Source: Candidatus Micrarchaeota archaeon
Lineage (GTDB): Archaea; Micrarchaeota; Micrarchaeia; Anstonellales; Bilamarchaeaceae
NCBI GenBank assembly: GCA_014727925.1
Contig: WJMN01000047.1
Coordinates: forward strand, 41,833-105,832
Direction: 5' to 3'
Length of the DNA stretch: 64,000 bases
Shown: piece by piece, positions 2,800 through 53,190 of the stretch
How the letters are laid out: each line of letters opens with the position of its first letter
Numbering within the stretch: position 1 is the stretch's first letter
Position numbers and translations under genes: made by a program
The notes under the pieces: model-generated
The model's input: only the letters and a program-made list of their open reading frames with translations
What the model was told of the DNA's origin: nothing
The model's database searches: none

Positions 2800-2826
2800 A
2801 AAGTTTATGTAAATACATTTATATTT
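2800..2826. promoter_or_regulatory. Bidirectional AT-rich promoter region (TATA-like elements) between leuS and the six-gene membrane array
   Basis: AAAGTTTATGTAAATACATTTATATTTG. TTTATATTT lies 23 nt upstream of the ATG at 2849, and the complementary element lies about 30 nt upstream of the leuS start. Confidence 0.4.
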
Positions 2827-2848: not shown

Positions 2849-4072
2849 ATGAGCGGGCCATCATTACCCATGCAAGTCCTGCCCCTGCTCCAGGCCGGTG
2901 AGGTTTCATGGCTTGGCCAGGAGGTTTCCCAGAATCCCATGGTCACCAGCCTTCTCCCTATTGCCCTCCTCACTGCAGCATTTATCATAACCCTCTATTA
3001 CCTTATTGGAAAAGCCCTGAGCTCCCCCCAGGTGAATGCATTTGCCACAGAAGAGTTCTCCCAGCTTCTGGTTTCTGTTTTCATCGCAGTTGCCTGGTTT
3101 GCGGTTTATGGAGCGCTTGCAGGGGCAACTTCGCTTGCAATATGCTATCCGGATTACTGCGACCATTTTGACATCGCCTTCTACTCTCTTGATATGCTTT
3201 TCTACAAGCTAATTTCCACCTACATTGGCTACACCACAATAGAGATATTTGTGGGTCTTGTTTCAAGCCTCGGGTTCAGCGTTCCTCTTAAGTCCCCGGT
3301 GCTTGCAGTAAAATTCCTCAGTTTTTCACCTTACTCTGGGATGGGGATGCTTAGCAATTCAATAGTAGGGATACTAGAAAGCCTGGGGATGTTCATCGGG
3401 CTTGTTGTCGGGAGGAAGCAGCTCCTCACCTTTTTCTATGAGATAACCCCGATGTTCCTACTCCCGTTCGGGCTTTTCCTTCGCTCCCTCCCGTTTACCA
3501 GAAAAACAGGCTCCAGCATAATTGCAATAGCTTTTGCAGGATTTTTCATCTTTCCTGCTTCAATAATCCTTTCCCACTATATGATGTTCGGGACAAGCGG
3601 CCACCTCGCCTACATCCCCATGGCCCCCACTCCCACTGGGCTCTGCACGGCCCCGGAAAACCCAGAGGATGAGGCAGCTGCCCTAGCTTACCTAAACCAG
3701 TCAAACACAGAGGTGAGGGAACACCTTGCGGAAGACTTAAGCGCCTCTGCCTCGTATGAAGGCAACTGGTACCAGTTTTCCGGGCTGGCCAATGCCATAT
3801 ATTCCTGGATTGCAGAGGCCCTTGATGAGTCGTGGGGCGTTGTTTCGGAGAAATTTTCATTTTATTCCCTCTTTGACCTGCTCAAGCCCACAACATTCGC
3901 TTATTTCTTTTATTTCCTGATACTAGAGCACCTCCAGGCATTTGCACAGGTTGCAGTAATGACCATAGTCACTTTCGTGATTGAGATAATAATTACGGTT
4001 ACCGGGTACCGCGCAATAGCAGCGGCGCTTGGCGGGGAACTGGAAATTCTCGGCCTCACAAAGGTGGTGTGA
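2849..4072 (+). CDS. Polytopic membrane protein, paralog 1 of a six-gene tandem family (unknown function)
   Basis: Multiple hydrophobic helices. Shared motif LLPFGLFLRSLPFTRKTGSSIIAIAFAGFFIFP and conserved C-terminal tail ...ELEILGLTKVV. The ORF-track start (TTG 2825) lies inside a TATA-like element, so the ATG at 2849 (MSGPSLP...) fits a leaderless transcript. The stop overlaps the next paralog start (GTGATG). Confidence 0.7.
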   Translation: MSGPSLPMQVLPLLQAGEVSWLGQEVSQNPMVTSLLPIALLTAAFIITLYYLIGKALSSPQVNAFATEEFSQLLVSVFIAVAWFAVYGALAGATSLAICYPDYCDHFDIAFYSLDMLFYKLISTYIGYTTIEIFVGLVSSLGFSVPLKSPVLAVKFLSFSPYSGMGMLSNSIVGILESLGMFIGLVVGRKQLLTFFYEITPMFLLPFGLFLRSLPFTRKTGSSIIAIAFAGFFIFPASIILSHYMMFGTSGHLAYIPMAPTPTGLCTAPENPEDEAAALAYLNQSNTEVREHLAEDLSASASYEGNWYQFSGLANAIYSWIAEALDESWGVVSEKFSFYSLFDLLKPTTFAYFFYFLILEHLQAFAQVAVMTIVTFVIEIIITVTGYRAIAAALGGELEILGLTKVV

Positions 4073-5037
4073 TGCCCCTCCTGGAAACATACCTCCCGAT
4101 AGTCGGAATAACTGTGCTTGCAGTTGTTGCATATATCTCAATAATAACTATTGCTGCATTTGCCCTGAGGCGCCCCCAGCTTGCTGCGTATGCAAGGATA
4201 GAGTCCTACCAGCTATTTCTCTCGTTCCTCATACTTGTTGCCGCATTTGCAGCCATGGAATTCTCCAACCTGATTTCTACTATGATTTCCCAGGCACCCC
4301 CAGGGGAAACAGCAATAGACATTTCAGTGGATTTTCTAGAAAAGGTAATCCATGAAGGTATCCTGCCTATTTACCTAAAGCTCGTGAGGATGGAAGTCCT
4401 GCTCACCTACTTCAATGCAGTTGAGTACAGGATGGGTCCTGGAGTATGGAACTGGATAACCAAAGCAGTTCCCGGTCTTGACCCAATAATTTCCCTGGTG
4501 CGGATGCTTGTTTTCACATTTACTGCCCTATATGGAACTCTCAGCGTCCAGATAATAATATTCCACCTAATTGATGCGATTATGTACTTTTATGTGCTGC
4601 CCGCAGGAGTAATATTGCGGTTTTTCCCGCCCACGCGGGACGCAGGGGTCTATCTGATAGTGCTGGCCATAGCTTTCCAGGCATTTTTTCCCATGTTTTA
4701 TGCAATAAACTATGCTGCACTGGATGACATGTGGGAGATGCACGGGTGGGCGGACCCGGACAGCACCGGAACTTACGATAGTTATACTCCGGATATTGAA
4801 GACACCAATTATTTTGAAAGCGTCAACTCGGCACTGGGCACTGCGACAAGCATGGCAGATACTTATTTCAATTGGGCACTTCCTGTGTTCCAGCCCTTCG
4901 CTTTCTCAGTGCTGGTTCCATTCCTTGACCGTATTGCCCAAATTTCCCTGGTCGGGCTGTTTCTCCCGGCCCTTTCAATGAGCATTACAATAGCCTTAAT
5001 TAATGCGGTGACCAAGTTCATCACCGGGAAGGGATAG
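4069..5037 (+). CDS. Polytopic membrane protein, paralog 2 of the six-gene family
   Basis: Motif VLPAGVILRFFPPTRDAGVYLIVLAIAFQAFFP and N-terminal PQLAAYARIESYQLF motif shared with the siblings. 4-nt overlap with the upstream gene and 2-nt gap to the downstream gene. Confidence 0.7.
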   Translation: MMPLLETYLPIVGITVLAVVAYISIITIAAFALRRPQLAAYARIESYQLFLSFLILVAAFAAMEFSNLISTMISQAPPGETAIDISVDFLEKVIHEGILPIYLKLVRMEVLLTYFNAVEYRMGPGVWNWITKAVPGLDPIISLVRMLVFTFTALYGTLSVQIIIFHLIDAIMYFYVLPAGVILRFFPPTRDAGVYLIVLAIAFQAFFPMFYAINYAALDDMWEMHGWADPDSTGTYDSYTPDIEDTNYFESVNSALGTATSMADTYFNWALPVFQPFAFSVLVPFLDRIAQISLVGLFLPALSMSITIALINAVTKFITGKG

Positions 5038-5038
5038 G

Positions 5039-6301
5039 ATGGTTCTGGAATTGTGGGCGCAATGGGGCGGACTTGCCGGGGTAGGGATAATGCTGGCAGT
5101 TGCATTTGCGGTGCTTGTTTACCTTCTCGGAAGCTTTCTGAACAACGACAGAATGAGGGCCTTTGGGCGGCTTGAGGTTGTAGAAGCTTTCTATTCTGCC
5201 ATACTCCTGATATTAATTTTCTGGATTCTTGCAACAGCAACCGGTGCAGCAGAAACCCTCATAGTGGGCGCCTACCCCGGAGAGATAGGGGCAGCAGTGT
5301 GCGGCTCCCAATACGATGCATACTTCAATGATTATGACGGTGCCTTCCCCTGCCACATGCGCACTGCCCGCTTCTACCTTGACCAGCTATATGCAGAGGG
5401 CAAGGTATTCAATTATGAGCTTCTTTCAATCCACATGTGGTATTCTTTTATGCAGAACATCGGGGTTTCTGCGGATTTCCACGCGCACAGCACCGGCTCT
5501 GCAAATTATTCTCCCCTCGGTTCTATTTTCAGTCTGCCCTCATCCATCTATTCCTACATGTTTGAGATAGGGATGAAGTCCATGATAGTGATACGTTTCC
5601 AGCAGTTCCTGCTGAATTTCATAAACTATTCACTTTTCCCCGTTCTCCTGGTGCTCGGACTTCTTCTGCGCACTTTCCCTTTCAGCCGACGCCTGGGGGG
5701 CCTGCTCATGGCAATGGCAATTTCCCTTTATTTTATTTATCCAATGTTCTATGTGCTAGGAGGCGTAATCTTTGACAATATTGCGATGAAGAGTGCATAT
5801 TATTCCGGGGGCCCCACGGTGGATGAAAACGGAAACATAAAGCGCCCCTCAGTAATCACGTCCCTTGAATTTGACCCTGAGGAGTTTTACGGCAAGGTGG
5901 GCATTACAGATGAAGATGCAGACCTCCTGCCCTCAGGAGACGAAGTGCCGGGCAACAACCAGGACGATGTCAACCTAGACTACCTTGACCAGCTTTATCC
6001 TGAAGAAATGGAGATGTGCAGGAGTTCGGATCTTGGTGTTGTGGACGGGATTTCCATGATATGGGACTGGGCAAAATTGTTCCTTTACGAGGTTGATTTT
6101 ACCGGGCTGATAATCTCAAATGAGAGTTACATAGATTCCCTAATATCCCCCGGTGGGGTGATAGATGCAACCGCCCGCTTTGTATTCTTTTCAATGTTTT
6201 TTGCCCTGCTTTCAATATTTTCCACAGTAGCTGCGATAAGGAGCCTTTCTCCGCTCCTTGGAGGAGACATAGAACTCGCCGGGCTTACCCATCTGCTATG
6301 A
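5039..6301 (+). CDS. Polytopic membrane protein, paralog 3 of the six-gene family
   Basis: Motif LLVLGLLLRTFPFSRRLGGLLMAMAISLYFIYP, C-terminal tail ...IELAGLTHLL, large acidic extracytoplasmic loops. Confidence 0.7.
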   Translation: MVLELWAQWGGLAGVGIMLAVAFAVLVYLLGSFLNNDRMRAFGRLEVVEAFYSAILLILIFWILATATGAAETLIVGAYPGEIGAAVCGSQYDAYFNDYDGAFPCHMRTARFYLDQLYAEGKVFNYELLSIHMWYSFMQNIGVSADFHAHSTGSANYSPLGSIFSLPSSIYSYMFEIGMKSMIVIRFQQFLLNFINYSLFPVLLVLGLLLRTFPFSRRLGGLLMAMAISLYFIYPMFYVLGGVIFDNIAMKSAYYSGGPTVDENGNIKRPSVITSLEFDPEEFYGKVGITDEDADLLPSGDEVPGNNQDDVNLDYLDQLYPEEMEMCRSSDLGVVDGISMIWDWAKLFLYEVDFTGLIISNESYIDSLISPGGVIDATARFVFFSMFFALLSIFSTVAAIRSLSPLLGGDIELAGLTHLL

Positions 6302-6311
6302 GGTTCCAAAA

Positions 6312-7433
6312 ATGAAGACAAAAGTTTTGTTCCTGGTGCTGCTGTTCCTGTCTGCAGGGTTTGCCCAGGCTGGGGACCAGGCTTTGCAGGAGGCCGAACA
6401 GGATGCAATGGAAACTGCCAGCGAACTTCTTCAGGAGATAGGGATAACCAAGGATACCTGTGCCCCGGAAGAAGGCCCGCTTGACCTGGCCATCCCATCA
6501 GCAATAGCCCTGCTTGTTATCGGGACCGGCCTGGCAATATTCTACATGGCCGCTAGTTTTTTCAATTCCCCGCAGATGATTGCCATGGCAAAGCAGGAGG
6601 GCTTTGAGTTTATCCATACCCTGATAATTGTCGTTTTGTTCCTGAGCTTCATTTCCTTTGCCCAGGGTCTGCTGGGCGTTCACGGAGTTGGCCCCCTTGA
6701 TGTATATTCAAAAGCAATGGAATACTGCGTGGTCATGGTGCAGAAGATAACCGGGGACATGTTCTGGCTGGGCTTTTTCAACAACATTGTTTACCTTGTT
6801 TACAGCTCTCCACTTAGAATAGGCATCCTGCACCAGGCGGTCCACTTCAACCTGGGCGGAATACTCAAGCCCATGGTGGACGGGCTGGGCACCATGGCTT
6901 CCCTTCTTTCATTTGCAATGGGAGAGTGGATTGTACAGCTGATTCTGCTATGCCTCATAAAGAAGCACATGCTCACTGTCTTCCTCCCGCTTGGAATCCT
7001 GCTTAAGACCTTTCCCCAGACCAGGGGAGGGGGAAATGCCATAATCGCCATTGCAATAGCCCTTTCCTTGATCTATCCAATGATGATTCTGATGAATTAC
7101 CAGGCATACCAGTACCGTTATGGACAGATGGATGCAATAAGCGGGATAGGCGAAATCCTAAGCGACTGGACAATTTCCGGCGGAACACTTGCCACGGCTG
7201 CAGTGAGCCTTTTCCTGCTAAAGGGCCTGCTCAAGACTCTGCCCGGCATAGTGCTCCTAAGCTGGCTGGTGACGGTTTTCTTTGACCTTTATGCGGACGT
7301 GATTTACACGGTTTTTGTGCTGAGCATTTTCCTTCCCCTCCTCAACATTTTTGTCACATTCACTTTTGCGAGGGAGATAGCAAAATACTTCGGCACGGAA
7401 ATAAATATCTCAGCTTTCACTAAGCTGATATGA
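6312..7433 (+). CDS. Polytopic membrane protein, paralog 4 of the six-gene family (N-terminal signal-peptide-like segment)
   Basis: Motif FLPLGILLKTFPQTRGGGNAIIAIAIALSLIYP, tail ...NISAFTKLI. The N-terminus MKTKVLFLVLLFLSAGFAQA looks like a cleavable signal peptide, unlike the siblings. Confidence 0.7.
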   Translation: MKTKVLFLVLLFLSAGFAQAGDQALQEAEQDAMETASELLQEIGITKDTCAPEEGPLDLAIPSAIALLVIGTGLAIFYMAASFFNSPQMIAMAKQEGFEFIHTLIIVVLFLSFISFAQGLLGVHGVGPLDVYSKAMEYCVVMVQKITGDMFWLGFFNNIVYLVYSSPLRIGILHQAVHFNLGGILKPMVDGLGTMASLLSFAMGEWIVQLILLCLIKKHMLTVFLPLGILLKTFPQTRGGGNAIIAIAIALSLIYPMMILMNYQAYQYRYGQMDAISGIGEILSDWTISGGTLATAAVSLFLLKGLLKTLPGIVLLSWLVTVFFDLYADVIYTVFVLSIFLPLLNIFVTFTFAREIAKYFGTEINISAFTKLI

Positions 7434-7442
7434 GGTGGAACA

Positions 7443-8483
7443 ATGCCATATGAGATGCTTGCGACACAGGCCTGTTCTCCGGAGAACATGCTGATTCCGG
7501 ACTGGCAGGCCCTGGCAGTTGTTGCAATGGCAGCATCCGCAGCCCTCCTCGGCCTCCTTTATGCAATAAACCGGTTTTTTGGAAACGAAGCAGGAGAAGC
7601 AGCAGTCAAGCTGGAGCTTTTTGAGCTTTTTACAACAGTATTCATAGTTATCGTGGTATTTGCGTTGCTTAATTCTGCATGCGGGTATGATGCTAGCGGC
7701 CTGGTAATCGCCCCAAGCAATTTTGAGGCAGGCACAAATATTTTTGACGGGGCGGCCCAGGTTCTTGATGAATTTTCAACAAAGCTGGTGATAATCGCAT
7801 CTCTTCTCCATACAATCTATATTCCTCTTGATTTTACCACTTCCACCACTCTTACCCAACATCCCCTTGGCATGGGAACTGCCTTCCAGCCCACTGGAGG
7901 CTTTGGGGCTGTCATGAAGCCCCCACTTGTGCAGTCTTTCCAGATGGTTGCAGTTGCATTTGTAATTATACGCGCACAGCTTCTTGTGCTTGATTTTGTC
8001 ACTTTTGCCTTTCTCAAATATTACCTCCCCATAGGGATAATCCTGCGTTCCTTTACCCCTACCCGCAGGATAGGTGGAACAATAATAGGGCTCACAATAG
8101 GCATGGTAATCATCTACCCTCTTTTGATAATACTAAATGGGTTCATGCTTGACGGGCTGGACATAATGGATGTAACCAATCTTCCCGAATACTTCGGGGA
8201 GCTGCTTTCTGCTGCTCTTGAGCCTCTTAGGAATTCAACAAAGGTTCTCTCCCTTTATGAGCCCCTCTCAATACTTCAATTCGGAAAGCTGGCAATAACC
8301 AGCTTTTTTGGGGCACTACTTTCTGTATACTATGGACTGTTAATGCGCACTGCGGCAGTGGCTTTTCTTGTGGGGCTTTTTTTCCCCGCTTTCAATACTC
8401 TTTTACTTGTTACCATGATAAGATACCTCACAAAAACACTCGGTGAAGAGATGGATGTCACCAACCTCACGAGGCTGATATAA
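7443..8483 (+). CDS. Polytopic membrane protein, paralog 5 of the six-gene family
   Basis: Motif YLPIGIILRSFTPTRRIGGTIIGLTIGMVIIYP, tail ...MDVTNLTRLI. The stop overlaps the next start (TAATGG). Confidence 0.7.
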   Translation: MPYEMLATQACSPENMLIPDWQALAVVAMAASAALLGLLYAINRFFGNEAGEAAVKLELFELFTTVFIVIVVFALLNSACGYDASGLVIAPSNFEAGTNIFDGAAQVLDEFSTKLVIIASLLHTIYIPLDFTTSTTLTQHPLGMGTAFQPTGGFGAVMKPPLVQSFQMVAVAFVIIRAQLLVLDFVTFAFLKYYLPIGIILRSFTPTRRIGGTIIGLTIGMVIIYPLLIILNGFMLDGLDIMDVTNLPEYFGELLSAALEPLRNSTKVLSLYEPLSILQFGKLAITSFFGALLSVYYGLLMRTAAVAFLVGLFFPAFNTLLLVTMIRYLTKTLGEEMDVTNLTRLI

Positions 8484-9526
8484 TGGACGGCTGGATAATG
8501 ATATCTGCGGTCGCGGTTATAATCTCTGCCCTGCTTGCAGCTATCATGATAATGGCCTCCCGCCTCATGCAGCTCCCTGACCTTGAGCAGTGGGCAAAGT
8601 CCGAGCTGGTCTTCTCGCTTTCCACAGTATTTGTGCTCCTTTTCCTAATCTCCATAATTGAGTTTGCCGAGCCCCTCCTAGTAGACATCATAAGGGAGAT
8701 GACTGAATTCAACTTCGGGCAGCAGAGCGGCCAGATACCTGTGCTTCCCCCAGGGGAAGAGGCCACACTCATGGATTACGCCCTTGCGTATATGCATTCT
8801 GTTTTTTCCTGCATAAAATCTCTTTTCAAGTTCCTGCTCAAGCTGAATTTTCCCCTGGAACTGGCCGCCTCATTCAGCGTGGATGTTTTCATGTTTGATG
8901 CGGTGGGAGGCTGGGTTTACAAGGGCCCGGTCCAGACAATTAAGAACATGGCCAATTACATAACATTCACCCTGTTCATCTATTACTTGTTCATACACAT
9001 AATGCGTTTCCTGGAGGCAACTGCACTCACAATATTCATTCCGCTGGGGATAATTCTCAGGCAGTTTCCCCCCACCCGGGGCTCGGGTGCATTCATAATC
9101 TCATTTGCAATCGGGTTTTATATAGTGTTCCCGCTTGCTTACCTCCTCGTGGTCAATGTGGTGCCGCAAACGTTTGCCTGTCCGGTACTTCCGGAGTTTG
9201 AGCATCTAGATGGCCTTACGGCATATGGAATGGGCGACTCCCATACTGCTTCGGACATGCTTCTCTGGTCCGATGCCCACCAGAGCGGAGTCTGGAATAC
9301 CCTGAGCGGAATAGGCGGGTATCTTGCAGGTTTCGATCTTGATTCTTTTGATGTAATCCCGGATGCGGTTGAGTTTACTGCAGGAAGGGTTGCAGGGTTT
9401 TCCATAAACCTTTGCTGCCTCCCCTTTCTTGCAATGATAATAACAATGAGCTTCATCCTCTCCAGCACGAATCTTTTCGGAGCTAATCTTCCTGAGATAG
9501 GAAGGGGATTCATCAAGCTAATCTGA
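8483..9526 (+). CDS. Polytopic membrane protein, paralog 6 of the six-gene family
   Basis: Motif FIPLGIILRQFPPTRGSGAFIISFAIGFYIVFP, tail ...GRGFIKLI. Confidence 0.7.
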   Translation: MDGWIMISAVAVIISALLAAIMIMASRLMQLPDLEQWAKSELVFSLSTVFVLLFLISIIEFAEPLLVDIIREMTEFNFGQQSGQIPVLPPGEEATLMDYALAYMHSVFSCIKSLFKFLLKLNFPLELAASFSVDVFMFDAVGGWVYKGPVQTIKNMANYITFTLFIYYLFIHIMRFLEATALTIFIPLGIILRQFPPTRGSGAFIISFAIGFYIVFPLAYLLVVNVVPQTFACPVLPEFEHLDGLTAYGMGDSHTASDMLLWSDAHQSGVWNTLSGIGGYLAGFDLDSFDVIPDAVEFTAGRVAGFSINLCCLPFLAMIITMSFILSSTNLFGANLPEIGRGFIKLI

Positions 9527-10582
9527 TTTTTTGAACAGGTAGTGATAGAATGGATTTTTTTCCGCCCCCCGCTTAAGCAGCTCAATATCATACCCTTCCT
9601 TCTCAAGTTTTTTTGCCTCCCCCTCTATTTCAGCAGCCTCCATGTAATCCAGCTTTTCAAGCTCTACCGAAAAAAGCTTCCGGCCCAGCACCCTCTCCAC
9701 GAACCCATCCTGTGCCTCAACACTCCCCCTGCATTTTTTCTCAAGCCACCCGAAATCAACATCAACAGTGTACTGCTCCCCGTATTTCCTTACAACTGAA
9801 CTGTTCCATATTTCAGATGTAAGCGCTTCAATTTCCTCTGTTCCGTAGAATCCATACTCAAAAAGGCTCAGCCCCCCTCCATCAGCGAGTTTTCCCTTCC
9901 ATTTTTCCACCAGGCCGATTGCTTCAATGTTCACCGGTACCCAGTATCCCTCCGGGATGTTTTCCATCCTTTCCATGGCAACTGCAGGGGCGCGTGGCTG
10001 TTCCCATGCCGCAAATTCACCGTTGTTCCATCCCACTTCGTAAATTTTCCCCTTCTCTTTTACAAATACTCTTGCAGGAATATCATCCAGAATCTCGTTT
10101 CCCCTTATCCAGAGAGCACTGCCCATTTTTTCCGCTTCTTCTGCAGGGGCACACACGGATTCAATTGCATATTCCCTCAGCTTCTCCTCAGACGCATCCA
10201 GCATTTTCCTGCTTATGTCCCACAGCGTGTATACTACCCTCTTGCCCACCGAATGATCTATCCTGTTAATGTTTTCAAGGAATTTTTTGGCAAAGCTGCC
10301 GTCACCCACACCAAACTCATAAACCCTGAGCTCCCCTTCTGTGTTGCCCGCACTCTCAAGGAATTCCAGTGCACATGCCTTGCCCAGCCTTGCAGATGCC
10401 GCAAAGGTCTTGAAGTCCTGGTAGATGTGCTTGCCCCTTTCCGGATAATACCTGCGGTTGGTCCTCTCCATAAGCTTTGCAATGCTCTCCATCACACTTT
10501 TCCTGCTCCGAAACAAATAATAATCATCTCCCTGATTTATCCGCATGCAGCAGTTCGTACTTGACACAAGCCTTTTTGTCAA
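9518..10582 (-). CDS. Class I SAM-dependent methyltransferase-like protein
   Basis: Gly-rich motif I (VYEFGVGDGSF) followed by an acidic beta-2 end (VYTLWDIS). Substrate unknown. Confidence 0.5.
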   Translation of the reverse strand: MTKRLVSSTNCCMRINQGDDYYLFRSRKSVMESIAKLMERTNRRYYPERGKHIYQDFKTFAASARLGKACALEFLESAGNTEGELRVYEFGVGDGSFAKKFLENINRIDHSVGKRVVYTLWDISRKMLDASEEKLREYAIESVCAPAEEAEKMGSALWIRGNEILDDIPARVFVKEKGKIYEVGWNNGEFAAWEQPRAPAVAMERMENIPEGYWVPVNIEAIGLVEKWKGKLADGGGLSLFEYGFYGTEEIEALTSEIWNSSVVRKYGEQYTVDVDFGWLEKKCRGSVEAQDGFVERVLGRKLFSVELEKLDYMEAAEIEGEAKKLEKEGYDIELLKRGAEKNPFYHYLFKKSD

Positions 10583-11102
10583 TCCTGACTGCAGGAAGCA
10601 GTTTGGGAAAACCCCCTACTCTTCGGTTTCAGGCTTCATAAAAAAAGCGAAAACAAAAAAGAAAAAGGCAGAGTTCTACATGCCTCCCATCGTGTTCAGG
10701 GAACTTTCCCATTTCACTGAAAAGGGCTCTTCCCGGCTTTCAACTGTAGTTAAAAAGCGAGCCCCGAACCTTTATGGAATATACATACCTGCAGCAATCC
10801 TCTACACCTTCATAGATGATGTAAGGATGCGGGTAAACAAGGGTCTGAGGCTCGCAGAGGAGTTTGCCAGGGACAACAAGCCGGACAACAGGGCAAAGCT
10901 CAACAAACTCAGGGCAAAATACAGGGAGGCTATGCGCAGGGGGATGGTTGATTCCAAGGAGGACCTGGAGGTTATACTGCTCGCGTATGAGCTCGGGGCA
11001 ACAATTGTCACTTCTGATGAGGGGATGGTTGAGATGGCGAACAAGATAGGTGTTGAATGGATAGAGGCAGAGAGGTTCGGCGCCCTTCTCAAATCAATTT
11101 GA
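10545..11102 (+). CDS. RNA ligase partner protein, UPF0278/MJ_0950 family (PIN-like)
   Basis: N-terminus MQQFVLDTSLFVNPDCRKQFGKTP...FYMPPIVFRELSHF closely matches the conserved N-terminus of archaeal UPF0278 proteins. A Pab1020-type RNA ligase lies 500 bp away. Confidence 0.75.
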   Translation: MQQFVLDTSLFVNPDCRKQFGKTPYSSVSGFIKKAKTKKKKAEFYMPPIVFRELSHFTEKGSSRLSTVVKKRAPNLYGIYIPAAILYTFIDDVRMRVNKGLRLAEEFARDNKPDNRAKLNKLRAKYREAMRRGMVDSKEDLEVILLAYELGATIVTSDEGMVEMANKIGVEWIEAERFGALLKSI

Positions 11103-11599: not shown

Positions 11600-12667
11600 C
11601 TAATCAGCCTGAGCATATCCTCCTATTGCCCTTCTCAGCCTCCTGCTTCCCTTTTTGTAGATTTTCCTGAATTTTATTCGTGTTCCCCCCTCCTCTTTCT
11701 TTTTTGAGTCCACTTCTATCCGGACCTCATCCGACATATGCTCCAGGACCTTCCTCCAGGTCCTGTTTTTTTTCACGAGAACCTCAAAGTCCTCACTTAC
11801 TTCCCCTCTGTTTTTTATTGCAGTGTAAAGATTTTTGTGCAGGGCCCTCCCCAGCTTTCCATCATATTTATCCTTGTCCAGCCCAAGTTCAGAAATGGAT
11901 ATTGCGCTCCTAAAGACACGCTGCTTCATGAACCCTGCCGGCATATCAAATATCATGTGCGAATTTTCTGCAAGGTCCTCTATCTCGGAGGAGGGGACCA
12001 CATATTTTATTATTTTTCTCGGCTTATCCTGCTTTAGCACAATCCCCTCCCCCCCGCTTTTTTCAACCCGAATCGCCGCTTTTTTTAGTTTCCCCGAATC
12101 CGGGCCCCCCATCCTCTCTACCAGGGGCGCGGCTCCCATTCTGTATTCTCTGCAGAGCTTTCTTTTTTCCCCGGTAGGGAGGAAATTGAGCTTTCCGTCG
12201 CTTATGTCAAACACATAATACTTAACATCATAATCCTTTGCGGGAGGGGTGTAGGGAGTGCACCCAACCATCTCAATATGGAGCACCTTTTCCGGGTGGA
12301 TTTTGAAGAATTCCCCTACTTCCTCCCTCTCCGAAATCTTCTCCATTGCAAAATAGTCCAGGAATCCTCCCCGTGAAATGCAGACAACTTTCCCGTGTTC
12401 ATAAGCAACCCTCAGGTTGAACCCGTCAATCTTTTCCTCTGCCCACGTTTCCTTTTTCCCAAGGTTTCTTTCCGCCCCTTCTGCAAGCGAAAAAACCCTC
12501 CTTATTTTTGGGTAACCGTACACAACCCGTTTTCCGATTATCACCGTCCCCCTGGGGATACTCCCTATCCTGTCCGAGAAGCGGTAGATTCCGTCTCTTT
12601 CCTCTACTTTTCCATTTCTGATTGCATCCCTGACCTTTTTCCTCAGCCCCTTATTCAGTTTCTTCAT
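11600..12667 (-). CDS. ATP-dependent RNA ligase, Pab1020/Rnl3 family
   Basis: Nucleotidyltransferase motif I EEKIDGFNLRVA (KxDG lysine). Upstream RGTVIIG...GYPKIRRVF aligns with the Pab1020 N-terminal domain. The ORF track extends to 12760 with a Lys/Arg-rich N-terminus that would overlap the antiporter gene by 110 nt, so the start at Met-32 (12667) was chosen. Confidence 0.85.
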   Translation of the reverse strand: MKKLNKGLRKKVRDAIRNGKVEERDGIYRFSDRIGSIPRGTVIIGKRVVYGYPKIRRVFSLAEGAERNLGKKETWAEEKIDGFNLRVAYEHGKVVCISRGGFLDYFAMEKISEREEVGEFFKIHPEKVLHIEMVGCTPYTPPAKDYDVKYYVFDISDGKLNFLPTGEKRKLCREYRMGAAPLVERMGGPDSGKLKKAAIRVEKSGGEGIVLKQDKPRKIIKYVVPSSEIEDLAENSHMIFDMPAGFMKQRVFRSAISISELGLDKDKYDGKLGRALHKNLYTAIKNRGEVSEDFEVLVKKNRTWRKVLEHMSDEVRIEVDSKKKEEGGTRIKFRKIYKKGSRRLRRAIGGYAQAD

Positions 12668-14006
12668 CTTCCTCAACCACTGTTTTCTGGATTTCAACCT
12701 TTTTCTTCTTTTTGGGGTTTTTTGCGGTCTGCCCATCCCCTTTCTCCCCTGCTTCAGCATCTCCCTTTTTTGCAGGTTTTCCGTTGCCGAATATTACTGT
12801 GCCAAGAGTTGTGGCCAGTATGCTTGTAATTATTACCACGAATGCAATCTGGGGAAAAGAGGAGAACATTTTATACAGTATGTTGAATTCCCCTGCCTCC
12901 AGCAGGCTGGATTTTTCCAGGAGCATTGCTGCAGGGTAAGTGGCCATGATTGCGGTTGCCAGCCCCCTCGGCATCAGCACAGTAAGCTGGGGCCGGAATT
13001 CTAGCAGGTCGCTTTTCCAGGTTGAAACCCAGACTGCTGCAGCCCGCACTGCAAGCAGGAGCAGGGTCACCCCAATTCCTACAAGCACCAGCCCCATATC
13101 TGTGATATTTACAATGGTTCCCAGGAATACAAAGAAGAATGTCCGCACAAGGAAGGAGATCTCATTCTGGAATTTGCTTACCCCCGGCTCTTCGGCGACC
13201 CCCTCAAACCTGAGCATCTTTCCGATTTCCCCCATGTTTCCAAGCATGAAACCGAAAACCAGCGCGGCAATTGCCCCGCTCCCTCCGGTAATTTCTGTGA
13301 TTATGTAGAGCACAAGCATTATTGCAAGTGTGAGCATGTAGAAAAAATTCAGCTTCCTGAGCTTGGGGCTCAGCCCTATCCATGCCATTCCAAATATTAC
13401 CCCGAGCACTGCACCTATTGAGAAGCTGGAAACCACGCTTTGCGTAGTGCCCTGGATGCTTGCATGTCCTGAGATGAACGCGCCGGTCAGAGAAAGGACC
13501 AGTACCACTGCAACAACATCAGTTATCGAGGATTCTATGGTTATTGTCTGCCTGGCCTTCTCGCTTATCTTCATTCCCCTGGCTATGGGTATTACTATTG
13601 CGGAGCCGGTTCCTGCCACCACTGAACCAAGGATTATCCCTGAGAAAATGCTGTTTCCCATAATCGCCCAGGCAGCAGCAACCGCTCCTATTGCAAGGGC
13701 AAGCCCCAGCACCCCGAGGATTATTCCCCTCCCGCTCTCATGCACAAGCCGGTATATGTTCAGCTGTGTTCCACCATCAAAAAGCAGTATCAGCAGGGCA
13801 AGCGGGGCAAAGATGTACTCCAGCCCCACCATTGTATCAACATCAACTATCCCTGTTACCGGCCCCAGCAGGTACCCTGTTGCAAGCAGCAAAAGCACAG
13901 AGGGGATTCCATATCTCCTGAATATCAGCTCCCCCAGGAACCCCACCAGGATTATTCCGGCAAAAATTGCAAAAGCAACCAGTGTAGCAAACGCCATGCA
14001 TCTCAC
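12651..14006 (-). CDS. Na+/H+ (cation:proton) antiporter, CPA1/NhaP-like
   Basis: 451 aa, about 12 TM helices, N-terminal region typical of NhaP-type exchangers, acidic/lysine-rich cytoplasmic C-tail. Confidence 0.65.
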   Translation of the reverse strand: MRCMAFATLVAFAIFAGIILVGFLGELIFRRYGIPSVLLLLATGYLLGPVTGIVDVDTMVGLEYIFAPLALLILLFDGGTQLNIYRLVHESGRGIILGVLGLALAIGAVAAAWAIMGNSIFSGIILGSVVAGTGSAIVIPIARGMKISEKARQTITIESSITDVVAVVLVLSLTGAFISGHASIQGTTQSVVSSFSIGAVLGVIFGMAWIGLSPKLRKLNFFYMLTLAIMLVLYIITEITGGSGAIAALVFGFMLGNMGEIGKMLRFEGVAEEPGVSKFQNEISFLVRTFFFVFLGTIVNITDMGLVLVGIGVTLLLLAVRAAAVWVSTWKSDLLEFRPQLTVLMPRGLATAIMATYPAAMLLEKSSLLEAGEFNILYKMFSSFPQIAFVVIITSILATTLGTVIFGNGKPAKKGDAEAGEKGDGQTAKNPKKKKKVEIQKTVVEEDEETE

Positions 14007-15761: not shown

Positions 15762-16712
15762 ATGTCTGATAAAAAATATATTCGCCACAATCCAAAGAAA
15801 GAAAAAGGGATAAAATTTCCTTATCTTGTGCTTGCATTCCTTACCTTGGGCTTTCTTGCAATGATTATCTCGGTTTTTGTTTCAATGGCTTCAGAGGGCC
15901 CTGTTTTCGGGGAGTGTGTGGCCGTTGTGGAAATAAATGGGGAGATTACAACCCAATCCTCGCCAACGAGCATGTTTGCTGAAGGGACCTATGGCTCCTA
16001 TGAACTTTCAAAAAGAATAAACGCACTCAATGGGCGCGATGAGGTTTCTTCTGTGCTGCTTGTGGTAAATTCACCCGGGGGCTCAGTTGTTGCAGCAGAT
16101 GAGATTTACCGTTCGGTGGATTCAGTTGAAAAGCCGGTTGTCGCTTATTTCCGGGAAACGGCTGCTTCAGGTGGATACTATATTGCCGCACCCGCGGATT
16201 ACATAGTTTCTGAGCCCAACACCCTTACAGGCTCACTTGGGACAGTAATGTATCTTGCCGAATTCAGCGAGCTTGCAAAGGAGCTAGGCATAAAGGACGT
16301 TGTAATAAAATCAGGGGAAATGAAGGACATTGGAAATCCCATGCGCAATATGACAGAGGAGGAGGAAGCCCTGCTCCAGGAGGTTGTGGAAGAGGCATTC
16401 CAGCATATGAAGTCCAACATAGAGGAGCAGCGCGGAGACTCCCTCGTATACCCTGAGTTCAACGAGGTTCTAGACGGAAGAGTTCTTTCCGGCAGGATGG
16501 CACTTGAGGCGGGCCTTGTTGATGAGCTTGGCTCAAGGGACGATGCCCTTATGAAGGCAGCAGGGCTTGGGGGGACTGAAGCTGCCTCCCCTTCTGATGT
16601 GGAGGTGTGCATGATAAAGACCAAGCCTGAGGCTGCGGGCCTCTTTGACATGAGTTCCTTCATAAGCAGTATTTTCTCAGAGGAACAAACACCTTCACTC
16701 AATTACCGGTGA
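15762..16712 (+). CDS. sppA: Signal peptide peptidase SppA (protease IV, S49 family, 36K type)
   Basis: N-terminal TM, VVNSPGGSVVAADEIY and AASGGYYIAAPADYIVSEPNTLTGSLG motifs characteristic of S49 peptidases. Confidence 0.85.
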   Translation: MSDKKYIRHNPKKEKGIKFPYLVLAFLTLGFLAMIISVFVSMASEGPVFGECVAVVEINGEITTQSSPTSMFAEGTYGSYELSKRINALNGRDEVSSVLLVVNSPGGSVVAADEIYRSVDSVEKPVVAYFRETAASGGYYIAAPADYIVSEPNTLTGSLGTVMYLAEFSELAKELGIKDVVIKSGEMKDIGNPMRNMTEEEEALLQEVVEEAFQHMKSNIEEQRGDSLVYPEFNEVLDGRVLSGRMALEAGLVDELGSRDDALMKAAGLGGTEAASPSDVEVCMIKTKPEAAGLFDMSSFISSIFSEEQTPSLNYR

Positions 16713-17083
16713 ACCCCTTGGAACCAGAAAAAATCCTTGTTGCATCAGTCGCAGTTTTTACAGGGTTGTTGATACTTGTGCTATTTATTTACTTTTTTTC
16801 TTATCCTGGCACCCGCCTGGATTTTTCGCCCACTTCCCTTGACCTGGGGAGCTCAGGCTATGAATGCACTCTAGGAGATGAGCTTCCCTGCACCGATGAG
16901 GGGGGTTGCCCGGGCACCAGATCCTGCCTACACGGAGACTGGTCTTCCTGCACTGTCCGGGAGGAATGCACCCCCGGGGAAACCCGCTTCTGCCCCACCG
17001 GGGGCTGCACCAACGGGGTACAGAGATGCGATGCATGCTCCCAGTGGGGGCCCTGTCTCCCCTCTGGATGCTCCAGCGGATAA
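16709..17083 (+). CDS. Small membrane-anchored Cys-rich protein (hypothetical)
   Basis: GTG start overlapping the sppA stop (GTGA). N-terminal TM helix, then a domain with about 10 Cys plus Gly/Thr/Pro. The alternative-frame ORF 16878.. overlaps it but is probably non-coding upstream of 17124. Confidence 0.45.
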   Translation: MNPLEPEKILVASVAVFTGLLILVLFIYFFSYPGTRLDFSPTSLDLGSSGYECTLGDELPCTDEGGCPGTRSCLHGDWSSCTVREECTPGETRFCPTGGCTNGVQRCDACSQWGPCLPSGCSSG

Positions 17084-17123
17084 CTCCGGTGTGTTTAAAA
17101 GCTTTTATTTTAGAATTATATCG

Positions 17124-17789
17124 ATGGGAACCAGAAAAGCATTTGTATTTTCCCTTGATTCATTTGTTGCATTTGTGCTTACAGTTGCTGCTCTGTATTC
17201 CCTCCTGTTTTTCGCAACGGTTCCTGCTGCTTATTATTCTTCGCTGACACAGGCAAATTACCTTGCAAAGGATACTCTGCTTGCGCTTGCAACAACCACT
17301 GCAGGTGAAGGGGCCGCCCACTGCAGCGAAGGGCAAACATATCTCGACTGTGTAATTGAAGATAAAAAAGCAGCGAGGATATATATAGGCTCAAAGGGCC
17401 AGGAAGGAGGATACGATGAGAGCGCCCTTGTGCCTGCCCAGTTTGGTTATAAGATTGAGACCCTTGATTTTTCGGAGGGAGACGGGGAAATAAACTTTTC
17501 TGATGCAGACTGGAGCGAAGTTTATAATACGGCAGATGACCCGCAGTCTGCAAACAAAAAAGAATACCACAAGCTCAAGGCAGCTGCCCACGCGCTTTAT
17601 TTTGGCTACAGCCAAGCCCCGGAGGGGGGAGAGGAATCCCCGCTCCACTATGTTAGCTGTGGAGGAGAATACACAATTTGCTCCTGGCCCGAGCCATTCA
17701 TTTATTATGGCAGCTATGACCATGAAGGGAACACTGACATCGTTGGAGATGCATATTCGCGGGTTGTGAGATTCACAGTATATACTTGA
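17124..17789 (+). CDS. Pilin-like protein A with class III (type IV prepilin-like) signal peptide
   Basis: Start at the internal ATG gives MGTRKA|FVFSLDSFVAFVLTVAALYSLLFF: short basic n-region, K at -2 and A at -1, then a hydrophobic helix. AT-rich TATA-like sequence immediately upstream. Confidence 0.55.
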   Translation: MGTRKAFVFSLDSFVAFVLTVAALYSLLFFATVPAAYYSSLTQANYLAKDTLLALATTTAGEGAAHCSEGQTYLDCVIEDKKAARIYIGSKGQEGGYDESALVPAQFGYKIETLDFSEGDGEINFSDADWSEVYNTADDPQSANKKEYHKLKAAAHALYFGYSQAPEGGEESPLHYVSCGGEYTICSWPEPFIYYGSYDHEGNTDIVGDAYSRVVRFTVYT

Positions 17790-17797
17790 GGTTTTCC

Positions 17798-19552
17798 ATG
17801 AACAGAAAAGGGTTTTTCTTCATAATCGTGGCGTTCGTCCTTCTTTCCTACATCCTTACATCTACCTATTTCTGGGTGCGGGCAATAGAGATGGAAGAAT
17901 CCAGGTATTCCGAAGCATTCCGCACAAGCTCCATGGAGATGGCGCTTTCCCAGGTAAATGAGGAAAGCGTAGGAGAATATGTGGACATTTCGGCCAGGTA
18001 TGCATTTTACCGCCTAAACCACCATTCTATTGAAAACCCGGTAAGTGTTCCGGGTGGTGTTGATATTGCAAATGAGGATTCCCTGGATGGCTCCGAGCTT
18101 GAGAACGTCCGTCTCGCGATGCGCGAGCTTGTGCTCTCCGGAACAGCACCAGAGGATTATTTTGAAGGGGAACCGCTAGAATATAGCGAAAATGAAAAAC
18201 TGGTCTATTCTCTGGATGGGTGGAAAAATCAGCTGAATGCATCGCTTGCCGCAGCCGGCTTTGAGCTGGTTGAGCTTTCAATAGATGAGGGTTCATTTGA
18301 GTTCAACCAGGTTAACTTCACCCAGTTTGAACTCGTTTTTGAAATGAACATGACCATTGTGGACAGCCAGGCAGGCTCTTCAACTTCCCTCCACCGCACT
18401 TATGATGTGAACCGCACGGTGGATGCAACAGGCATGGTGGATCCCTACATTGCCCGCGAATCCAAAAATCTGGACCTTGAATGGGAAGGAGAGAGCGTGC
18501 TGGTTGGGAAACCGGTATTTATTGCGCCCTACTGGGAAGATGGCTATGAAGCACTCTGCTCAGGAGGGGAAAACGGCCCCTGCTATTACGAGGATGATGG
18601 CTCAGAAGGCCAGGGCTGGTTTTATGGGCCAGTTGTTATGGCTGAGGATGCCTCCACTGTTCCTGAAAATGCAACCGACAATTATATTCTTGCAGGAAAT
18701 TATTCTGCTATAAAAAGCACTCCGGACTGGGATAAGTTCGGCGCATATATACTCACGAGCCCTCCCACCGAAGAGAATTCCGATTGCCCGGGCGAGAATG
18801 ACCAGGATGATACATTCAGCCCTGTTTATTATGATGGGGACTGTGATGCAGAGCTTGATACCGGATCAAACGATTACATCCAGAAGCCCTTCATGGTCTA
18901 TGAAGGGTTTGATATTGGTGATTATGGGGGAGTGGACCTCCAGAGCGGGGACGAGAATGCCCACAAGCTCCTATTTGTTGCAGGGGCAAACCCCTGGGAG
19001 GTAGAAACAGACCCGGAGCTAAAGTTTGAGGGTGTTTCAGTTTACAATATTGAAAATCTTAGGGATTTTGTAATGTGCGGATACTACATGCCGCGCAACA
19101 ACAGCCCCTCCTTTCTCCACCGCATGTTTGACCTGCAGGGAATGTTTAATGACGAGCTCCCTGCCTACGATGGCTGGCCCGAGAGCCCCTGGGGAATTGA
19201 GACCACTGCAGCAGGAAGGTGGGCAGGGGGAAACCTTGTGGCAGATTCCTGGGATGCCTACAGCAGGGTTGATGTTGAGTTCTTTTCAGAGGTGGAGAAT
19301 ACTCCCCAGAACCCGGTGCAGATGATTAAGGGGATGCCCGGGAACAAGAATATTTATATGTGCAACATGGAGTTTGGCTACGACCCGAACCTGGAGCATG
19401 TGGGCCATTTCAGGCTGAGTGACTGGGCCCAGGAAGACAGGGAAGAATACGATGATATTTACTGGATAGAAACTGATGACAGCCCGGATGTACCGGAGAA
19501 CGACAACACAGGTTGTGATAATGATGAGCAGGCAAACTGCGAGCTCGACTAA
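17798..19552 (+). CDS. Large pilin-like/adhesin-like protein B with class III signal peptide
   Basis: MNRKG|FFFIIVAFVLLSYIL N-terminus. 585-aa acidic extracellular domain with N-x-S/T sequons. The TTG at 17786 is an alternative start. Confidence 0.55.
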   Translation: MNRKGFFFIIVAFVLLSYILTSTYFWVRAIEMEESRYSEAFRTSSMEMALSQVNEESVGEYVDISARYAFYRLNHHSIENPVSVPGGVDIANEDSLDGSELENVRLAMRELVLSGTAPEDYFEGEPLEYSENEKLVYSLDGWKNQLNASLAAAGFELVELSIDEGSFEFNQVNFTQFELVFEMNMTIVDSQAGSSTSLHRTYDVNRTVDATGMVDPYIARESKNLDLEWEGESVLVGKPVFIAPYWEDGYEALCSGGENGPCYYEDDGSEGQGWFYGPVVMAEDASTVPENATDNYILAGNYSAIKSTPDWDKFGAYILTSPPTEENSDCPGENDQDDTFSPVYYDGDCDAELDTGSNDYIQKPFMVYEGFDIGDYGGVDLQSGDENAHKLLFVAGANPWEVETDPELKFEGVSVYNIENLRDFVMCGYYMPRNNSPSFLHRMFDLQGMFNDELPAYDGWPESPWGIETTAAGRWAGGNLVADSWDAYSRVDVEFFSEVENTPQNPVQMIKGMPGNKNIYMCNMEFGYDPNLEHVGHFRLSDWAQEDREEYDDIYWIETDDSPDVPENDNTGCDNDEQANCELD

Positions 19553-19988
19553 GAAAGGGCAGGCGGCCACTGAAACAATGGTCACCCTTGGAATGATCCT
19601 TGTTTTCGTGATACCCATACTGCTCCTGCTGCTCGTTGGCGCACAGGCCAGGTTTGAGTCTCTCTCCCATATTCAGGGTGGTTCAGTTATCAGGATAGTT
19701 TCTGATTCCATAAATGAGGTATATATAGAAGGCCCGGGCGCTTCAAAAACAGTTGTGGTTAATTTCCCAAGCAACGCCCGCTATCTCAACGTAACTGAGG
19801 ATGAGGTGGTGATGGGGCTGGATACCCGGAGCGGCCCAACAGATATAGTTTCCCCGTTTTTTGGTGAGCTCAACCAGAGCTCCAGGGGCCTGGTTGCACT
19901 TCCTTCAGGGGATGCACCTTCCGGGCTTTATCCAATAAAGTTTTATGCAGACAGCAGTGGAAATGTGGTGGTTGAGCATGGCGGGTAG
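19521..19988 (+). CDS. Pilin-like protein C with class III signal peptide
   Basis: MMSRQTASSTKKG|QAATETMVTLGMILVFVIPILLLL: KG followed by Q at +1 and Glu at +5, the hallmark of archaeal and type IV prepilins. The start overlaps the end of gene B. Confidence 0.6.
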   Translation: MMSRQTASSTKKGQAATETMVTLGMILVFVIPILLLLLVGAQARFESLSHIQGGSVIRIVSDSINEVYIEGPGASKTVVVNFPSNARYLNVTEDEVVMGLDTRSGPTDIVSPFFGELNQSSRGLVALPSGDAPSGLYPIKFYADSSGNVVVEHGG

Positions 19989-20523
19989 CAGAAAAGGCCA
20001 GATTGCAATTGAGTTCCTGATGTATTCAGGGCTTTTCCTGATAATTGCAATCGGCGCATATGTCCTTACTTCTTTTACAGAAAGAGGGGAGGTAAGCCTC
20101 AGGGAATCACAGCTGCTTGATGCATTCGGCTACAAGTTCGCTTCTGCGCCCACAATTGCCTACAAAGGAGGCGAGGGATTTACCTATGATATCTCTTTTG
20201 CAAAAAAGCTTGACAACCGCCCCTACAATGTTACCTATGCCTGCACAGGAGGCGACTCCAGGAGCTGCTATGTGCAGATTGCCTGGAGGGGCACTTACCA
20301 GGAATTCACCTACCCCTACGTGATTGCACCTGCCTTGTACAAGAAAGGGGAAGGTGCAGGGGATTCAGCTTGCATTGAGGATATAAGCTCAAGCAGCTCT
20401 GTTGACCTTGCTCTCAGGGTGGATTCTGAGTATTCAGATGGGCACCTTATATTCCGCAACACGGGAATCAAGCCAGGAGACGAATATCCCACAGTTGAAC
20501 TATATTGCGAGGTGGATGAGTAA
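19978..20523 (+). CDS. Pilin-like protein D with class III signal peptide
   Basis: MAGSRKG|QIAIEFLMYSGLFLIIAIGAYVL: RKGQ with Glu at +5 (same pattern as Methanococcus EppA-type pilins). Overlaps gene C by 11 nt. Confidence 0.65.
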   Translation: MAGSRKGQIAIEFLMYSGLFLIIAIGAYVLTSFTERGEVSLRESQLLDAFGYKFASAPTIAYKGGEGFTYDISFAKKLDNRPYNVTYACTGGDSRSCYVQIAWRGTYQEFTYPYVIAPALYKKGEGAGDSACIEDISSSSSVDLALRVDSEYSDGHLIFRNTGIKPGDEYPTVELYCEVDE

Positions 20524-20981
20524 TGAAGGGCCAGTATTTCAGTTTTGATGCAATAATCGGCGCATCCATATTCATCCTCACCCTTGTTGCAATCTTTTCT
20601 TACTGGTATGGGGTGAGCAATTCAATTGAGCAGCAGCAGTCAGCCCTTGCAACAGAGGCAATCCGCATAGCGGATATCCTTTATTCACCAACCGAAGTCC
20701 CTTATGGGGTAACTGTAAACTGGAGCAACAAGCACCTATATGTTCCCAAAGTGGAAGCTCTCTGTGATGAAGAGGCCCCTCCCTCAGATGTGCTGGGCTC
20801 TGAGTATGCGGTTTCAATTGATTTCAACACCCGTGGGGACAATATTTGTACCTGGGGAGAACAGTCCATAAATTCAAATGAGATTTACAGGATGCGCAGG
20901 GCAGGTTCTTACTTAGATGAAGATGGCACAACCAGACTGGGCTATGTGGATATCTTTGTTTATAACCCCTATTCAAACTAA
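20523..20981 (+). CDS. Pilin-like protein E with class III signal peptide
   Basis: MKG|QYFSFDAIIGASIFILTLVAIF: KGQ with Asp at +6. Overlaps gene D by taATGa. Confidence 0.6.
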   Translation: MKGQYFSFDAIIGASIFILTLVAIFSYWYGVSNSIEQQQSALATEAIRIADILYSPTEVPYGVTVNWSNKHLYVPKVEALCDEEAPPSDVLGSEYAVSIDFNTRGDNICTWGEQSINSNEIYRMRRAGSYLDEDGTTRLGYVDIFVYNPYSN

Positions 20982-47727: not shown

Positions 47728-47737
47728 GTGAAAAAAT

Positions 47738-47977: not shown

Positions 47978-48003
47978 GCTTTCCTCACGAGGAAGGTGTG
48001 TGA

Positions 48004-48567: not shown

Positions 48568-48573
48568 TGGAAT

Positions 48574-49692: not shown

Positions 49693-49700
49693 GGTGCAGA

Positions 49701-50024: not shown

Positions 50025-50029
50025 TATGA

Positions 50030-51781: not shown

Positions 51782-51789
51782 GTGGTACT

Positions 51790-53181: not shown

Positions 53182-53190
53182 GCGGTAAGC

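Follow-up and report, generated by a model that had tools for sequence, protein, structure and literature searches.

Why would an archaeon with a tiny genome keep six different versions of one membrane protein side by side? The question is raised by a 64,000-nucleotide (nt) stretch of contig WJMN01000047.1 (assembly GCA_014727925.1, Candidatus Micrarchaeota archaeon; positions 41,833 to 105,832, forward strand), referred to here as the window, in which six open reading frames (ORFs) are packed head-to-tail on the plus strand at 2849-9526 (Table 1). A preliminary description, made from the letters alone, had read these genes as an old six-fold duplication maintained as a hetero-oligomeric membrane complex. 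Our results show that the six genes are true paralogs of one protein family, and that their copy number and order are unchanged since the divergence of the sampled lineages. The operon has been found so far only in Micrarchaeota and, as judged by the sequence searches, the six paralogs belong to a hitherto unclassified family.

Hydrophobic composition was named in the preliminary description as the artefact that could imitate conserved motifs, and paralogy holds when this is checked. BLASTP among the six proteins gives alignments for all 15 pairs (28-70 bits), while the six-way alignment has ~17-26% identity to the first sequence and strictly invariant residues limited to E, G, L, R (of a T-R pair), G and P. 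As a control, one hidden Markov model (HMM) per paralog type was built from the 66 orthologs in 66 complete operons of other genomes, and the target set was the 3,843 ORFs from these loci, among them Na+/H+ exchangers, CarS, UbiA-type proteins and further polytopic ones. Each type HMM detects the other five types in 65-66 of the 66 loci, and the median scores lie between 29 and 107 bits. There were zero matches outside the family among the 3,843 ORFs even at E ≤ 10, and the sole apparent one turned out to be a frameshifted fragment of a type-2 gene. Since the HMMs find only the family in a set that includes many-helix proteins of other kinds, hydrophobic composition is not the source of the similarity.

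The family is large within its lineage. A profile search of 1.84 billion cluster representatives returned 3,005 members at E ≤ 1e-3 (2,281 at E ≤ 1e-10), and the source-named members among the best 150 of these matches are all Micrarchaeota, Micrarchaeia or Bilamarchaeaceae. In the current NCBI taxonomy the host lineage (Micrarchaeota, DPANN) is placed as class Micrarchaeia in phylum Microcaldota. A scan of GTDB, with one genome per species, for the type-3 tail pattern [LF]GGDxE[IL]AGL detected relatives in at least 166 genomes; the 80 records listed are all Micrarchaeota or archaea without further name. The viral contigs scanned contained no family relatives. Two metagenome-assembled genomes (MAGs) labelled "Candidatus ainarchaeum" (L014 and L030) would have extended the family to Iainarchaeota. 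This spread was rejected as a naming artefact on a check that covered one of the two records, L030, whose RpoA' shares 82% identity with the Ca. Bilamarchaeum protein.

Orthology follows position in the operon. Both in Ca. Bilamarchaeum and in one closer genome, the protein at each of the six positions is the best match of the window paralog at that position, with identities of 27-32% and 52-70%, respectively, compared with ~21-47% local identity to the other types. The exact order 1-2-3-4-5-6 on one strand is present in 69 loci, with most gaps between -4 and +10 nt, and no operon departs from it where the contig is long enough. The other fetched loci show incomplete or broken-up series, most of them on short contigs, which is consistent with contig ends or frameshifts. 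Because orthology is one-to-one by position and the order is fixed, the six-fold duplication predates the divergence of the sampled lineages, and the old duplication first proposed from a single genome is thereby borne out in distant Micrarchaeota. One MAG, JBDRIM01, carries the operon on each of two different contigs (L053 and L082), which could reflect a true second copy, a mixture of strains or an error in binning.

The preliminary description could not assign the family, and neither could we. Scans of the six proteins against Pfam, NCBIfam, PHROGs and PADLOC gave sub-threshold noise only (e.g., Wzy_C_2, E 0.038; DUF6239, E 0.045), and three family profiles searched against PDB chain sequences found nothing relevant. 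Mrp/Mnh antiporters, hetero-oligomeric ABC-2 permeases, EcfT and FlaJ/TadC resemble the system in having several membrane subunits in one tight operon, but they differ in that the six subunits here are paralogs of one fold, give no HMM match and are encoded without an ATPase. More specifically, ABC-2, EcfT and other ABC permeases have no Pfam or NCBIfam match, and neither the operon nor its conserved flanks contain an ATPase gene. The T2SSF platform (PilC/FlaJ/TadC) likewise has no Pfam match, and the window ORFs that were scanned revealed no PilB/FlaI-type ATPase. Anti-phage defence and viral families gave no PADLOC or PHROGs match and no occurrence on viral contigs. Tweety homologs (TTYH1-3) have five transmembrane (TM) helices, an outside N-terminus, an inside C-terminus and an extracellular helical bundle formed by extended TM helices. 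They appear at Foldseek ranks 3, 5 and 7 (E ~0.5, TM-scores ~0.2), which is chance level; moreover, these eukaryotic proteins form homo-dimers, are unrelated to the family in sequence and have no paralog operon. None of the membership tests that were run places the six proteins in a known family, and no earlier description of the operon was found in the searchable literature.

Within the window, the junction gaps between the six genes are, in order, -4, +1, +10, +9 and -1 nt, so that the genes overlap or nearly abut as first described, and GAGGT-like Shine-Dalgarno strings lie within both 9-10 nt gaps. Upstream of gene 1, the box TTTATATT resembles an archaeal TATA element and may serve as the promoter. 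It is located 24 nt 5' of the ATG at 2849 and overlaps an alternative TTG at 2825. This overlap, together with the deposited protein P0002 that starts at 2849, makes ATG 2849 rather than TTG 2825 the likely start of gene 1. Of the lengths of 322-415 aa given earlier, the 415 aa were counted from TTG 2825, and the probable protein has 407 aa. Paralog 1 is 100% identical to P0002 (407 aa, hypothetical protein, Candidatus Micrarchaeota archaeon), and paralog 6 is 98% identical to P0001. The last 9 nt of paralog 6 (9518-9526) are shared with the 3' end of the Methyltransf_28 gene that converges on it (9518-10582, minus strand), and there is therefore no space for a separate terminator.

The shared architecture that was described at first is confirmed by the alignment, as the Glu motif after TM1 and the central element L-P-x-G-x-x-L-[RK]-x-F-P-x-[TS]-R-x-x-G...P are present in all six paralogs. 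An invariant Arg and an invariant Thr-Arg had been proposed for this element; the R of the T-R pair is indeed invariant, but paralog 4 has K in place of the first Arg and paralog 3 has S-R. A tail of the G-L-T-[KRH]-L-I type, which had been ascribed to every protein, is placed exactly at the C-terminus of five of the six. Paralog 2 has no tail and stops just after the last TM helix, as do its orthologs in the 66 genomes. Across the phylum the tail signatures are GGE..[LF]GL.K[LV]V for type 1, GGD.EIAGLT[HR]LI for type 3, G[TS][ED].N[IL]..F..LI for type 4, GEE.D[IV][TS].LTR[ML]I for type 5 and ..PE[IV]GRG[LF].KLI for type 6. That each type keeps its own signature, and that type 2 is never tailed, argues for six non-interchangeable positions. 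Type 4 additionally has a signal-peptide-like N-terminal segment throughout the phylum.

Type 2 also varies at its other end. The window copy is the short form, whereas 32 of the 66 genomes encode a long form with an N-terminal extension of ~200 aa that holds extra TM hairpins. In these long proteins (~505-535 aa; e.g., L002:11337-12938), the core is preceded by a signal peptide and by a pair of repeated TM hairpins (G..FG.ETRA.A.VWS). The extension weakly resembles the TM1-TM2 hairpin of the family itself (6 of 32 at i-E < 0.01). A VirB2/TrbC-like pilin was also considered for the extension and was rejected after a Pfam scan gave zero matches.

The predicted fold agrees with a membrane bundle that carries an outer domain. 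The AlphaFold2 (AF2) model of paralog 5, built from a 141-sequence family alignment, has a predicted local distance difference test score (pLDDT) of 89.7 and a predicted TM-score of 0.83, and consists of an all-helical five-TM bundle with a helical ectodomain (helices H49-81, H100-133, H152-203, H205-238 and H276-332, and one small beta hairpin). The model of paralog 1 shows the same plan at lower confidence (pLDDT 75.8). Hydropathy and helix boundaries also indicate five TM helices. In the model, TM3 and TM4 are linked by a one-residue break within the L-P-x-G-x-x-L-R-x-F-P-x-T-R-x-x-G element, and since the break spans a single residue, the hairpin of the preliminary description is probably a tight helical turn. 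The turn has 2-3 K/R and zero acidic residues in all types across orthologs, while both long loops are net acidic. Following the positive-inside rule, these charges and the type-4 signal peptide place the N-terminus outside and the C-terminus inside. Both long loops are then predicted to be extracytoplasmic and to prolong the TM helices into the helical ectodomain.

Conservation, which was scored within each type across 66 species, is unevenly distributed over this topology. It is highest in the C-terminal tail (0.61-0.86; Table 1) and in the cytoplasmic turn, for which 0.71 was obtained in type 4 and 0.85 in type 5, the types where the turn is resolved as a separate segment. TM4 follows with 0.55-0.69. 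Low values were found for TM1 (0.39-0.57), and the lowest for the second outer loop (0.26-0.39). The family is thus conserved on its inner face and variable on its outer face, and the conserved elements at the cytoplasmic side are the Glu at the start of TM2, the Arg-rich TM3-TM4 turn and the tails.

Strict co-occurrence, fixed order, tight packing and type-specific conserved tails lead us to lean towards the assembly of the six paralogs into one hetero-oligomeric membrane complex. The six proteins would be made in fixed proportion from one mRNA, and the packing of the genes is consistent with translational coupling. Each complex would then hold one copy of every paralog in the cytoplasmic membrane, probably in a ring-like arrangement. 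The cytoplasmic Glu, the Arg-rich turn and the tails might form the contacts between subunits, for example by a terminal carboxylate and acidic stretch resting on the Arg loop of the neighbour. Alternatively, the conserved inner face may serve to dock a cytoplasmic partner whose gene lies elsewhere. On the outside, the helical ectodomains, which are acidic and variable, could form a collar in the space under the surface layer (S-layer), facing the pseudo-periplasm or the host.

What such a complex would do is a more tentative matter. An envelope platform or conduit is the role that we favour, though with reserve, and by analogy its architecture would resemble the VirB6 platform of type IV secretion systems. 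TrwI of R388, the VirB6/TrbL protein of the inner-membrane platform, and the proteins studied here are both polytopic all-helical inner-membrane proteins of ~300-400 aa. Both also have a large extracytoplasmic helical region after TM2, and in both a short basic P-T-[KR] turn leads from a Pro-containing TM helix into the next one. The VirB6-type topology, for which the reference is reportedly the work of Jakubowski et al. in 2004, comprises an outside N-terminus, a large outer loop after TM2 and a cytoplasmic C-terminus; hydropathy, the AF2 models, the charges and the type-4 signal together predict the same for this family. TrwI/VirB6 was the top or best-covering membrane-protein match in three fold searches, in one of which DotA also appeared, but these matches are non-significant. 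In Foldseek against 350,542 PDB chains, where no match reached E ≤ 1e-3, TrwI was ranked first with weak values (E 0.17, probability 0.66, TM-score 0.26-0.30).

The VirB6 side of the hhalign comparison was represented by single TrwI, by 120 close TrwI homologs and by 13 diverse plasmid VirB6 proteins. Type 5 against the diverse set gave P 0.0085 and a score of 28.4, collinear over 252 columns, and was the sole type to give such an alignment; its L-P-x-G...F-T-P-T-R-R was set on the conserved G-P...P-T-[KR] turn of VirB6. VirB6 is best regarded as a lead on fold likeness and not as a family assignment.

Several results weigh against the platform reading. The reversed VirB6 control scored 26.8, against type 2, and because this nearly equals the forward score the profile match is not significant; neither the family nor any single type gave a signal above the reversed control. 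PF04610 (VirB6/TrbL), which is carried by 120 of 120 TrwI homologs among the matches listed, did not match the six window proteins or their six orthologs from Ca. Bilamarchaeum at E ≤ 1. Homologs of R388 VirB2-VirB11 and VirD4 are found neither in the window nor in 1.36 Mb of flanks of ~80 loci, and the conserved neighbours of the operon are housekeeping genes. Finally, a ring whose subunits each dock their tail on the next one is hard to square with the tail-less type 2, which a simple symmetric ring leaves unexplained.

The same evidence bears on a stronger claim, namely that the proteins are extremely diverged true homologs of VirB6/CedA/TedA and make up the membrane platform of a transfer machine of the type IV secretion or Ced-like kind, with the VirB4-type ATPase and the pilin elsewhere in the genome. 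The fold ranking, the shared order of TM helices with the large loop after TM2, and the collinear type-5 alignment with superposed turn motifs would be expected if this were true. There are also precedents: archaeal VirB6-like CedA/TedA exist and are detectable only by profile-profile methods (PMC9905601), and Rickettsiales are known to have tandem VirB6 paralogs (PMC7648143). Still, the family has no significant sequence or profile similarity to VirB6/TrbL, and type IV secretion genes, including VirB4, VirB2, VirB5 and VirB8, are absent within ~10 kb in ~66 genomes and from the window. The operon is chromosomal and phylum-wide, lies amid housekeeping genes and is absent from viral and mobile contigs, in contrast to the mobile elements that carry VirB6/TrbL. 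It encodes six fixed, distinct paralogs where R388 VirB6 is, according to the deposited structure, a homo-pentamer, and the conserved extreme C-terminal tail is a feature of this family and not of VirB6. We therefore consider true homology unlikely, although it is not far-fetched.

Membrane proteins that are retained together in an operon without an ATPase could also form a new multi-subunit, ATPase-independent transporter or channel of ~30 TM helices, which would import nutrients, lipids or ions into metabolically reduced cells. DPANN cells rely on uptake from hosts, according to paper abstracts, and the consensus sequences show a Gln conserved in TM3 along with polar N/E-x-x-T-x-T residues in TM5. 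However, conservation is highest at the cytoplasmic surface and in the tail and not within the membrane, no transporter family is indicated by sequence, transporter fold matches are at noise level, and the carrier-typical internal or inverted repeat was not found. This makes a transporter distinctly doubtful.

A structural role in the envelope is more improbable still. The proteins might anchor or space the S-layer or a surface structure such as the nearby pilin-like proteins, with the ectodomains as stalks. The tall helical ectodomain predicted by the model and the variable outer loops would suit such a role, and Micrarchaeota do possess an S-layer (bioRxiv 10.1101/2021.04.28.441871). Additionally, homologs of the pilin-like operon (16709-20981) are located 3-6 kb downstream of the operon in ~20-26 loci, but this linkage lies within the general synteny of the region and is indistinguishable from it. 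Six distinct subunits and a conserved cytoplasmic face with conserved tails are also left unexplained by an anchor. Least probable of all is that the six are independent paralogs, such as specialised receptors or homo-oligomeric channels, clustered by descent only: tandem paralog arrays with separate functions are common and the AF2 monomer is a self-contained five-helix bundle, yet 69 loci keep one of each in one order where gains, losses and rearrangements would be expected, and this invariance of copy number and order disfavours it, as do genes that overlap or nearly abut and type-specific features conserved since before the radiation.

Returning to the hetero-oligomeric complex, its most specific version is a Micrarchaeota-specific hetero-hexameric trans-envelope conduit for symbiont-host exchange, either unrelated or anciently related to VirB6, whose Arg loops and tails recruit a cytoplasmic motor. 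We regard this as a long shot, but if true, it would be the missing cell-surface apparatus for the exchange of material between symbiont and host. Micrarchaeota belong to the DPANN archaea, with tiny genomes and dependence on a host, and how hosts and DPANN archaea communicate at the molecular level is still unknown according to the abstract of PMC11329633. That ~6.7 kb of a reduced genome is spent on six membrane paralogs, in an order fixed in all loci examined, suggests a core, lineage-defining machine. If the faint resemblance to VirB6 is true, the operon would be a natural case of a homo-oligomeric platform that has become a fixed hetero-oligomer. Structural and genetic studies in cultured Micrarchaeota are given a concrete target, and the operon may serve as a marker of the lineage if its restriction is confirmed in complete genomes.

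Table 1. Positions of the operon features and of two conserved downstream genes in the window (dashes within motifs separate residues; conservation is the within-type value).
Feature	Position	Strand	Length	Sequence or motif	Basis or remark
TATA-box-like (archaeal) element upstream of gene 1	2818..2825	+		TTTATATT	Read from sequence; putative promoter
Paralog 1	2849..4072	+	407 aa	Glu motif SSPQVNAFATEE at nt 3020-3055	ORF
Paralog 2	4069..5037	+	322 aa	Glu motif at nt 4168-4203; ends KFITGKG	Overlaps gene 1 stop (GTGATG)
Paralog 3	5039..6301	+	420 aa	Glu motif at nt 5141-5176	Most conserved tail, GGD-x-E-[IL]-AGLT-[HR]-L-[IL]
Paralog 4	6312..7433	+	373 aa	Glu motif at nt 6564-6599; N-terminus MKTKVLFLVLLFLSAGFAQAG	N-terminus signal-peptide-like, then acidic stretch and TM1
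Paralog 5	7443..8483	+	346 aa	Glu motif at nt 7581-7616	ORF
Paralog 6	8483..9526	+	347 aa	Glu motif at nt 8570-8605	Start overlaps gene 5 stop (TAATG)
Cytoplasmic TM3-TM4 turn, paralog 1	3461..3511	+		LPFGLFLRSLPFTRKTG	Alignment
Cytoplasmic TM3-TM4 turn, paralog 2	4597..4647	+		LPAGVILRFFPPTRDAG	Alignment, loop charges
Cytoplasmic TM3-TM4 turn, paralog 3	5648..5698	+		LVLGLLLRTFPFSRRLG	Alignment, loop charges
Cytoplasmic TM3-TM4 turn, paralog 4	6984..7034	+		LPLGILLKTFPQTRGGG	Alignment, loop charges
Cytoplasmic TM3-TM4 turn, paralog 5	8025..8075	+		LPIGIILRSFTPTRRIG	AF2 helix break at residue 204 (H152-203/H205-238)
Cytoplasmic TM3-TM4 turn, paralog 6	9038..9088	+		IPLGIILRQFPPTRGSG	Alignment, loop charges
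C-terminal tail, paralog 1	4028..4069	+		LGGELEILGLTKVV	Conservation 0.71 (last 20 residues, 396-415)
C-terminal tail, paralog 3	6257..6298	+		LGGDIELAGLTHLL	Conservation 0.83
C-terminal tail, paralog 4	7389..7430	+		FGTEINISAFTKLI	Conservation 0.61
C-terminal tail, paralog 5	8439..8480	+		LGEEMDVTNLTRLI	Conservation 0.73
C-terminal tail, paralog 6	9482..9523	+		ANLPEIGRGFIKLI	Conservation 0.86
PIN_5 protein	10545-11102	+			PF08745, E 4e-53; syntenic with operon in 49 of ~66 Micrarchaeota loci, same strand, just downstream
Pab1020-type RNA ligase	11600-12760	-			Syntenic with operon in 39 of ~66 Micrarchaeota loci

The operon lies between a LeuRS gene upstream, on the minus strand, and the Methyltransf_28 gene that converges on its 3' end. 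The most conserved neighbours are the genes for the PIN_5 protein, whose family is that of the protein-only RNase P (HARP), and for the RNA ligase. They were considered as functional partners and rejected as RNA-processing genes in a generally syntenic region. CarS, an S49 peptidase, LeuRS or AspRS, and RNA polymerase subunits are the other conserved neighbours. The gene-neighbourhood check across the Micrarchaeota loci thus shows conserved neighbours of housekeeping type, and no linked ATPase or other candidate partner. The operon had been described as free of an ATPase or substrate-binding partner, and both the HMM scans and this survey agree.

An envelope or surface module of 30 kb, which was suggested in the preliminary description from the nearby pilin-like genes and a giant surface glycoprotein, fares less well. 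The genes between the two operons encode the methyltransferase, the PIN_5 protein, the RNA ligase, a Na+/H+ exchanger, CarS and the S49 peptidase, all of which are housekeeping, and the synteny is phylum-wide and includes LeuRS and RNA polymerase. Since the neighbourhood is syntenic throughout the phylum, the proximity of the two operons reflects conserved chromosome order rather than a demonstrated functional link.

The pilin-like region itself (15762-20981, plus strand) consists of the S49 peptidase gene followed by six ORFs with hydrophobic, class-III-signal-like N-termini, one of them with a DUF7287 match; the scanned ORFs of the window showed no ATPase or platform of the PilB/PilC type. 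Two large ORFs have no Pfam match, one of 1,406 aa at 25149-29369 (plus strand), which is the presumed giant surface glycoprotein, and one of 800 aa at 54375-56777 (plus strand). The remaining genes of the window are housekeeping and encode PEP (phosphoenolpyruvate) synthase, Cdc6, ThiI and others, as well as an A-type ATP synthase. The operon of the latter (45829-54311, plus strand) looks complete, with subunits I, C, A, B and others, and its presence in the same window confirms the chromosomal housekeeping context.

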